The notes beneath the pieces were generated by a model. It saw only the letters and a program-made list of their open reading frames with translations, did not search any database and was not told the DNA's origin. A program made the position numbers and the translations under genes. A DNA stretch of 64,000 nt from Centroscyllium fabricii (Eukaryota): contig JBNRSN020000008.1 in NCBI GenBank assembly GCA_051313645.2, positions 161,324,001-161,388,000 of the forward strand, in the 5' to 3' direction. Shown in pieces: positions 12,504-12,803 of this stretch (its first letter is position 1; every line of letters begins with the position of its first letter).

Positions 12504-12779
12504 TGTGGTAAACCATTATTACCACTGTTGTACTACTGTACTGCTACCTGTAAATACCTTACTGCTGTCTGTAAATACCTGTAGACTGATGCATGCAGGA
12601 GCTTGCCCGGCTGACCCCGCCTCTGACTCCACCTTCGGACTCCGGTATATAGGTGCTTGTTCACCCACCTCTGGTCAGTACACTACTGAGCTCAGCCGAG
12701 ACACGCTCCATTCTTTCGTGAATAAAAGCTGCTTAGTTAAGGTTAACTCTTCATCTTTGGCCTTATTGACAGTGTATCA
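12504..12779 (+). repeat. 5' LTR of copy A
   Basis: About 94% identical by eye to 16862-17138; TATA-like tatata near 12646; AATAAA at 12721. Confidence 0.95.
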
Positions 12780-12803
12780 ATTTTATTCACTAAATTTTTG
12801 ACA

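Follow-up and report, generated by a model that had tools for sequence, protein, structure and literature searches.

The four related LTR retrotransposons in the stretch of DNA analyzed here belong to one chromodomain-less, single-ORF Ty3/gypsy clade that is spread across animals. Comparisons of their sequences make it probable that reverse transcription in this clade is primed by a fragment of about 52 nt from the 5' end of the element's own RNA, cut just past AAUAAAA. The stretch, hereafter the window, comprises 64,000 nt of Centroscyllium fabricii (assembly GCA_051313645.2, contig JBNRSN020000008.1, positions 161,324,001-161,388,000 of the forward strand), an animal with a genome of 7.2 Gb.

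Elements A (plus strand), B, C, and D (all minus strand, with B internally deleted) had LTRs of 276-313 bp that begin with TG, end with CA, and are 94.6-99% identical within one element. The LTR ends, 5-bp target-site duplications (TSDs), polypurine tract, and protease, reverse transcriptase (RT), RNase H, and integrase domains, which share one frame in natural copies, were those of Ty3/gypsy elements. The 5' LTR of D (locus L094) lies mostly outside the window, extending to position 64283, and was read from the neighbouring stretch. Element B consists of a 5' LTR, gag, the start of protease, and the last 16 nt of an LTR; its sequence jumps from the protease start into those final nucleotides (34656-34671, minus strand) with the TSD kept, and this deletion junction perhaps arose by an aberrant first strand transfer. 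The RT active-site motif was YLDN, not YxDD, in C (48952-51036, minus strand) and D (61005-63614, minus strand). Among 99 relatives (P0001-P0099), 56 had YxDN, 26 had YxDD, and 17 did not match the pattern; the Asn form evidently works, because the families were recently amplified. Tandem repeats that vary among copies were present between the zinc knuckle and protease in A (13682-13921, 48-nt unit) and D (61102-61684, 40/41-nt unit). The window also holds two decayed gypsy elements of a different lineage (20434-23673 and 37631-39753 (-)), for which LTR pairs were not found and which we take to be Mag-like by their gag motif, as well as an RT-bearing retroelement at 24290-26709, between or near them. 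ARAGORN gave no match on the window.

Table 1. Positions of the four elements and their parts in the window (TSD, target-site duplication; PBS, candidate primer-binding site)
Feature	Positions	Strand	Remarks
Element A	12504-17138	+	TSD AGAAC/GGAAC
A 5' LTR	12504-12779	+	276 bp, TG...CA; 94.6% identity to A 3' LTR
A TATA-like box	12648-12653	+	first base 29 nt before initiator A; spacing shared with B, C, D, and five chromovirus copies
A predicted primer RNA	12677-12727	+	51 nt, initiator A 12677 to end of AATAAAA; predicted position
A LTR partner segment	12714-12727	+	3' end of predicted primer; one mismatch in A 5' LTR
A candidate PBS	12781-12794	+	1 nt past LTR; gag ATG 12804
A gag-pol	12804-16792	+	several broken frames; RT, RNase H, integrase
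A polypurine tract and 3' LTR	16850-17138	+	3' LTR 16862-17138; perfect partner 17073-17086
Element B	34656-36153	-	internally deleted; TSD CAGAC
B 5' LTR	36153-35875	-
B initiator A	35976	-
B partner	35926-35939	-
B PBS	35860-35873	-
B ATG	35849	-
B LTR tail	34671-34656	-
Element C	48160-52622	-	LTRs 99% identity over aligned columns; TSD CACTG
C 5' LTR	52622-52322	-
C initiator A	52432	-
C partner	52381-52393	-
C PBS	52308-52320	-
C ATG	52297	-
C 3' LTR	48470-48160	-
Element D	64283-58804	-	58804-64000 inside window; LTRs 98.4% identity; TSD GTAGC
D PBS	63958-63971	-
D ATG	63950	-
D 3' LTR	59116-58804	-
D initiator A	58911	-
D partner	58860-58873	-

The relatives were obtained by a gag search and included ones from nematodes, cnidarians, echinoderms, crustaceans, tunicates, and aphids (named hosts: Trichinella, Xenia, Apostichopus, Palaemon, Macrobrachium, Clavelina, and an aphid); IMG/VR contained no relative. 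Exact-pattern counts in the host genome gave 14,703 family C 5' junctions and 6,050 family D leaders. A preliminary description of the window had found no chromodomain evident, and this agrees with a Chromo search (E 0.1) that detected the domain in none of 10 polyproteins and with a separate branch in the RT-RNase H tree. An RNase H domain was present, and the nearest solved RT was that of Ty3. In the tree, 31 rows formed one clade (SH-aLRT 99) apart from six chromovirus rows of the host genome and from the window's other gypsy elements, which served as outgroups; this was a quick tree of 41 rows with SH-aLRT only, long outgroup branches, and Tf1 left out. RT-RNase H identity between the clade and the host-genome chromoviruses was 29-30%. 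Two sequences first labelled as members, P0099 and L131_2, fell outside the clade.

The clade is probably the Cigr-1 clade, whose anatomy (a single ORF of ~1,200 aa and short LTRs) we assume to be a fit. Set side by side from descriptions, the two share tunicate and invertebrate relatives, here Clavelina and others. The Cigr-1 clade is recorded in Ciona and molluscs in the parts of PMC6238403 available to us, and the terms "PBS" and "primer binding" are absent from the text and searched supplements of that source. Selgy was ruled out as a clade name, being a Selaginella lineage. The Saci2 clade was also ruled out: Saci2 is described in the accessible part of PMC12471100 as having a tRNA PBS and a 4-bp TSD, whereas the present elements have 5-bp TSDs and no tRNA site.

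In elements A to D, the 5' LTR is followed by a single A, by 13-14 nt that form the complement of that LTR's own AATAAAA segment, and by the gag ATG, which lies 22-25 nt past the LTR end. The preliminary description had reported that the 5' LTR ends in CA and that this A and complementary stretch, not TGG, come next; that is what each copy contains, and the nine coordinate pairs listed for the leader and partner segments all read as given. The pairing is 12-19 nt long and begins one base past the 5' LTR. Complementarity was kept in further family members. Among 90 copies from the host genome (families A, C, and D), 82 paired with at most 1 mismatch in 13; the other 8 comprised 4 with 2 mismatches, 1 with a foreign LTR inserted, and 3 without a leader. 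Outside the host genome, leaders came from a metagenome scan of 70 loci, 24 of which had a gag start and upstream DNA, and 23 of these paired with their own LTR with no more than 2 of 12 positions non-Watson-Crick (the register in L109 and L154 was taken from direct reading of the leaders). These 23 represent 13 families with differing helix letters, and the site was always 1 nt past the LTR end. In the remaining relative, L111, there was no partner within the LTR part at hand. TGG was found in no leader read, whether from host copies or relatives, and the clade appears to lack a tRNA primer site. Foreign LTR elements were seen inserted in the last U5 bases or the leader of clade copies at L034, L064, and L240.

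The pairing is specific to each element. A 12-nt leader matched its own LTR without mismatch in 16 of 18 representatives, compared to 2 of 306 cross pairs with a foreign LTR, these being A and D, which have a common helix. The changes in the helix had been described as compensatory; the window alone offers weak grounds for this, with three helix sequences (A and D are identical) and a difference between A and B of one CpG-type transition, but the claim was backed genome-wide and in relatives. At pair 5/9 of family C, 14,703 copies had C-G unchanged, 130 were altered in the LTR only, 131 in the PBS only, and 58 in both, against 2.4 doubles expected. Twenty-nine of 30 doubles read were T-A and compensatory, on about three subfamily backgrounds; the 58 doubles are subfamily expansions from few independent events, and are transitions. 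Locus L145 carried a transversion in both LTRs with the matching PBS change. Mean pair probability of the helix was 0.72-0.99 in 21 of 21 folds, and folding z-scores for whole leaders ranged from -0.2 to -6.2. Taken together, the sequences indicate that the self-pairing of leader and LTR is real and functional. The spacing, which had been called invariant, is so only on the leader side: the 1-nt offset was constant, but the partner lay 51-59 nt from the LTR end in the window elements and 35-65 nt from it in relatives. A short LTR segment immediately preceding the partner (12706-12712 in A) is complementary to the gag start region (12803-12809), likewise in B, C, and several relatives, and can alternatively close a 5' hairpin. 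On this folding model, the leader could possibly act as a two-state switch between gag-start pairing and the 5' hairpin.

Each of the four families carries a TATA-like box and, 29 nt beyond the first base of that box, the A of an initiator-like YCA. The segment that runs from this initiator A through AATAAAA measures 51-52 nt; the partner begins 66-68 nt past the box. Chromoviruses of the host genome served as a control, and in 5 of 5 copies measured their 11-nt partner began 29 nt behind TATAA, the spacing at which the present clade has its initiator instead. Six young sushi-type chromoviruses (L387-L391 and L394) had covarying 11-nt self-primer sites, so that two self-priming systems occur in one genome. 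The start-site prediction was made before read-through data were collected. Those data placed the start, from DNA, 51-52 nt before the 3' end of the partner in families C and D, and weakly in A, in keeping with the earlier suspicion that the partner is not the RNA 5' end. The LTRs of relatives are shorter, and the 52-nt length was mapped in C. fabricii only.

Read-through copies, in which the leader runs on as the reverse complement of the LTR, were first seen at L179. Pattern searches, which detect only extensions of at least 21-22 nt, gave 109 matches in C and 181 in A, B, and D; 91 of the former and 70 of the latter (58 D and 12 A) were read. The sequence beyond the PBS was LTR and not tRNA, and it bore the variant base of the copy's own LTR in 49 of 50 cases. 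Of 58 D copies, 38 stopped at 21-54 nt, 2 stopped later (107 and 171), and 18 reached the LTR start, a class to which gapped alignment assigned three rows that have an indel near 51-52. Half of the 40 early stops in D fell at 51-54 nt (5, 9, 3, and 3), with 9 exactly at 52, the initiator A; these 20 had at least 18 different jump targets, and no stop fell at 55-106. The probability of such a pile-up under uniform stops within 21-54 was about 1e-9. Microhomology was ruled out as its cause, with short-word internal matches rarer at 52 than nearby. In C, 40 of 91 reached the LTR start and 51 stopped earlier: 25 at 22-46, 13 at 52-53, 3 at 55-58, 6 at 69-78, and 4 later. The 13 stops at 52-53 had 5 distinct junctions, and 9 of them shared one gag junction. 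These nine (L199, L202, L215, L255, L260, L262, L272, L273, and L274) join the primer 5' end to early gag with differing LTR variants, and reflect either a hot spot or a non-autonomous subfamily of small size. No peak was seen among the 12 A copies (stops at 23, 37, 40, 48, 49, 59, and 82, others long). Rough read-through rates were 109 vs 14,703 in C and about 160 vs 6,050 in D, with unequal pattern stringency.

Fold-back mini-elements with an LTR start at both sides had a 5-bp TSD in 10 of 12 cases, indicating that the fold-back cDNAs formed before integration, since the TSDs flank them. Ten loci (L206, L281, L313, L324, L325, L331, L336, L341, L346, and L352) were palindromic mini-elements of ~550 bp, made of an LTR, an A, and the reverse complement of U3-R between 5-bp TSDs. 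They are integrated fold-back cDNAs with two U3 ends, a cost of a self-complementary PBS. Post-insertion rearrangement as the sole origin was ruled out for the fold-back class by the TSDs; single short read-throughs could possibly have arisen in that way. Left junctions were mapped in 38 of 45 C copies without a whole front LTR, and 7 of the 38 lay at -2 to +1 of the predicted cut, a pile-up that faintly suggests cleavage there and that coincides with the edge of a DNA hairpin stem.

The steps that we propose are as follows. Transcription would begin at the initiator 29 nt behind the TATA-like box, as placed indirectly by the read-through ends, and nucleotides ~38-52 of the RNA, whose complementarity and covariation are described above, are predicted by folding to form a helix with the site one base past U5. 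The RNA would then be cut past the last paired A to leave a 3' OH, presumably by RNase H by analogy with Tf1, a step to which the C junctions point weakly. RT would extend across the spacer A and on into U5. Since the G after AAUAAAA cannot pair with the spacer A, DNA synthesis would start with a T. The attached primer would be copied by plus-strand strong-stop synthesis, normally to the PBS only, and in roughly 1-3% of copies synthesis would go further, up to the RNA 5' end, yielding the products observed. A predicted primer hairpin closes 3-5 nt past the duplex and may usually halt copying near PBS length. The PBS would be recopied from the primer, so LTR changes could pass to the PBS and speed compensation. 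An RNA primer of ~52 nt is the simplest reading of the stops because a DNA template has no end at 52, whereas an initiator-started RNA has one. Rfam returned nothing at gathering score on 5 loci, which therefore hold no known ribozyme.

Other readings of these data were weighed. The self-primer could be a piece of ~14 nt cut on both sides, or could act in trans from a second packaged RNA, with the PBS copy mis-annealing to the 5' end of an uncut RNA. Normal copies are complementary over 13-14 nt only, among the early stops, 25 of 51 in C and 18 of 40 in D fall short of 51 nt, and read-through fossils map the start site rather than a covalent link; mis-annealing to a second uncut RNA would give identical read-throughs. 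The free 3' partner should, however, be hit by mis-annealing no less frequently than the paired 5' partner, and 38 D copies stopped by the start site against 1 that entered the polypurine tract (in C, 41 at 58 nt or less against 6). The short piece also requires two cuts, and we consider this explanation unlikely. The same D counts bear on the proposal in the preliminary description that a cleaved or trimmed R region is the primer. Self-priming as such was backed, but the data favor a primer that comprises the entire 5' fragment, from start site to AAUAAAA, over a trimmed 3' R. Priming by the 3' end of genomic RNA, trimmed to AAUAAAA in the 3' LTR, could account for the 8 of 61 full-length read-throughs that go on into the polypurine-tract complement, but these are equally explained by mis-annealing to the 3' partner, and such a primer predicts no stop at the start site; we judge it very unlikely. 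Poly(A)-tailed processed copies, sought to place the RNA 3' end, gave 0 matches and were uninformative on that end.

In the HIV-1 leader, a helix is known to conceal both the 5' poly(A) signal and the start codon of gag, and the present helix might do only this while a host RNA primes. The partner has AATAAA in all four window families and AATAAA or ATTAAA in 7 of 13 outside families (the L134 signal was counted from its PBS), and in several folds the region around the gag AUG can pair with LTR bases that directly precede the partner. Masking had been put forward earlier as an alternative function, but it fails as a general one, because 6 of the 13 outside families have no signal in the partner; L099 and L101 have a separate poly(A) signal downstream. 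Nor could one host primer track 13 or more different sequences; masking does not need the invariant 1-nt offset, and the sequence copied past the PBS is LTR. We therefore regard masking alone as highly improbable; where the helix includes AAUAAA, a secondary role in concealing the 5' poly(A) signal is probable. Ordinary Tf1-type priming, with transcription starting at the partner, has the precedent of Tf1 and an initiator-like CCATT just upstream of the partner in A to C, and the unmapped starts of invertebrate relatives could be of this type. The read-throughs nevertheless pass the CCATT motif by 35-38 nt and end at the upstream initiator, and the spacing in the chromovirus control differs from that in the present clade, so we give this reading almost no weight. 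The ~52-nt 5' fragment remains the primer that we favor.

To our knowledge, Tf1-type elements, whose 5' primer is 11 nt long, are so far the only ones with demonstrated self-priming. The present clade resembles Tf1/Tf2 of S. pombe, Tj1 of S. japonicus, and the Tf1/sushi group in having a PBS complementary to its own LTR or 5' RNA and no tRNA, and it has a small predicted stem-loop right after the predicted cut, as in Tf1. It differs in that the Tf1 partner is the first 11 nt of the RNA, whereas here it is nucleotides ~38-52 of a primer about five times longer, with a predicted 5' hairpin and a poly(A) signal at its end. Tf1/sushi elements are chromoviruses, and the present clade, without a chromodomain, branches separately from the host-genome chromoviruses. 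The mechanism would thus be Tf1-like in a clade that is not a Tf1/sushi member, and the novelty is likely the ~52-nt primer with its internal pairing segment. Repbase reportedly holds entries called self-primed Gypsy, so PBS-LTR pairing may already be on record. In the literature searched, mainly at abstract level and with Repbase outside its scope, no animal gypsy clade outside the chromoviruses was described as self-priming by way of an internal partner (sources consulted in part included PMC3601003, PMC4600332, and PMC2864245). For Tf1, the RNase H cleavage is placed between bases 11 and 12 (PMC7175516), and in Tf1-type elements the PBS is copied into single-stranded cDNA ends (PMC11042837). 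Self-priming was predicted from PBS-LTR complementarity for plant Tcn1 (gypsy) and TAR, Houba, and Osr-1 (copia), which are of other lineages and hosts; the main-text passages of that source give neither an internal partner nor a primer length (PMC6317226). Dictyostelid Skipper, as described in the accessible part of PMC5006619, also lacks TGG and has a pyrimidine-rich stretch past the LTR for which its authors found no complementary LTR region; Skipper has a chromodomain, unlike the present clade.

A broader reading, which we offer tentatively and hold as somewhat doubtful as a whole, is that self-priming arose separately from Tf1 in a pan-animal gypsy clade, which uses a capped primer of ~52 nt cut at the end of the poly(A) signal. 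One helix would prime, silence the 5' poly(A) signal, and be able to reach over the gag AUG, thereby switching between translation and replication; the PBS would be rewritten in each cycle; and read-throughs would allow RNA-free mapping of primer ends for any LTR element.

Self-priming would explain why annotation misses the PBS in these elements, and with read-through and fold-back insertions, genome sequence by itself can be used to map primer ends and start sites. Elements of this kind would be insensitive to silencing of the PBS by tRNA fragments. If a long primer with an internal partner is used by a second lineage, unrelated to Tf1-type elements and very successful, tRNA independence would be commoner in animals than the searched literature shows.
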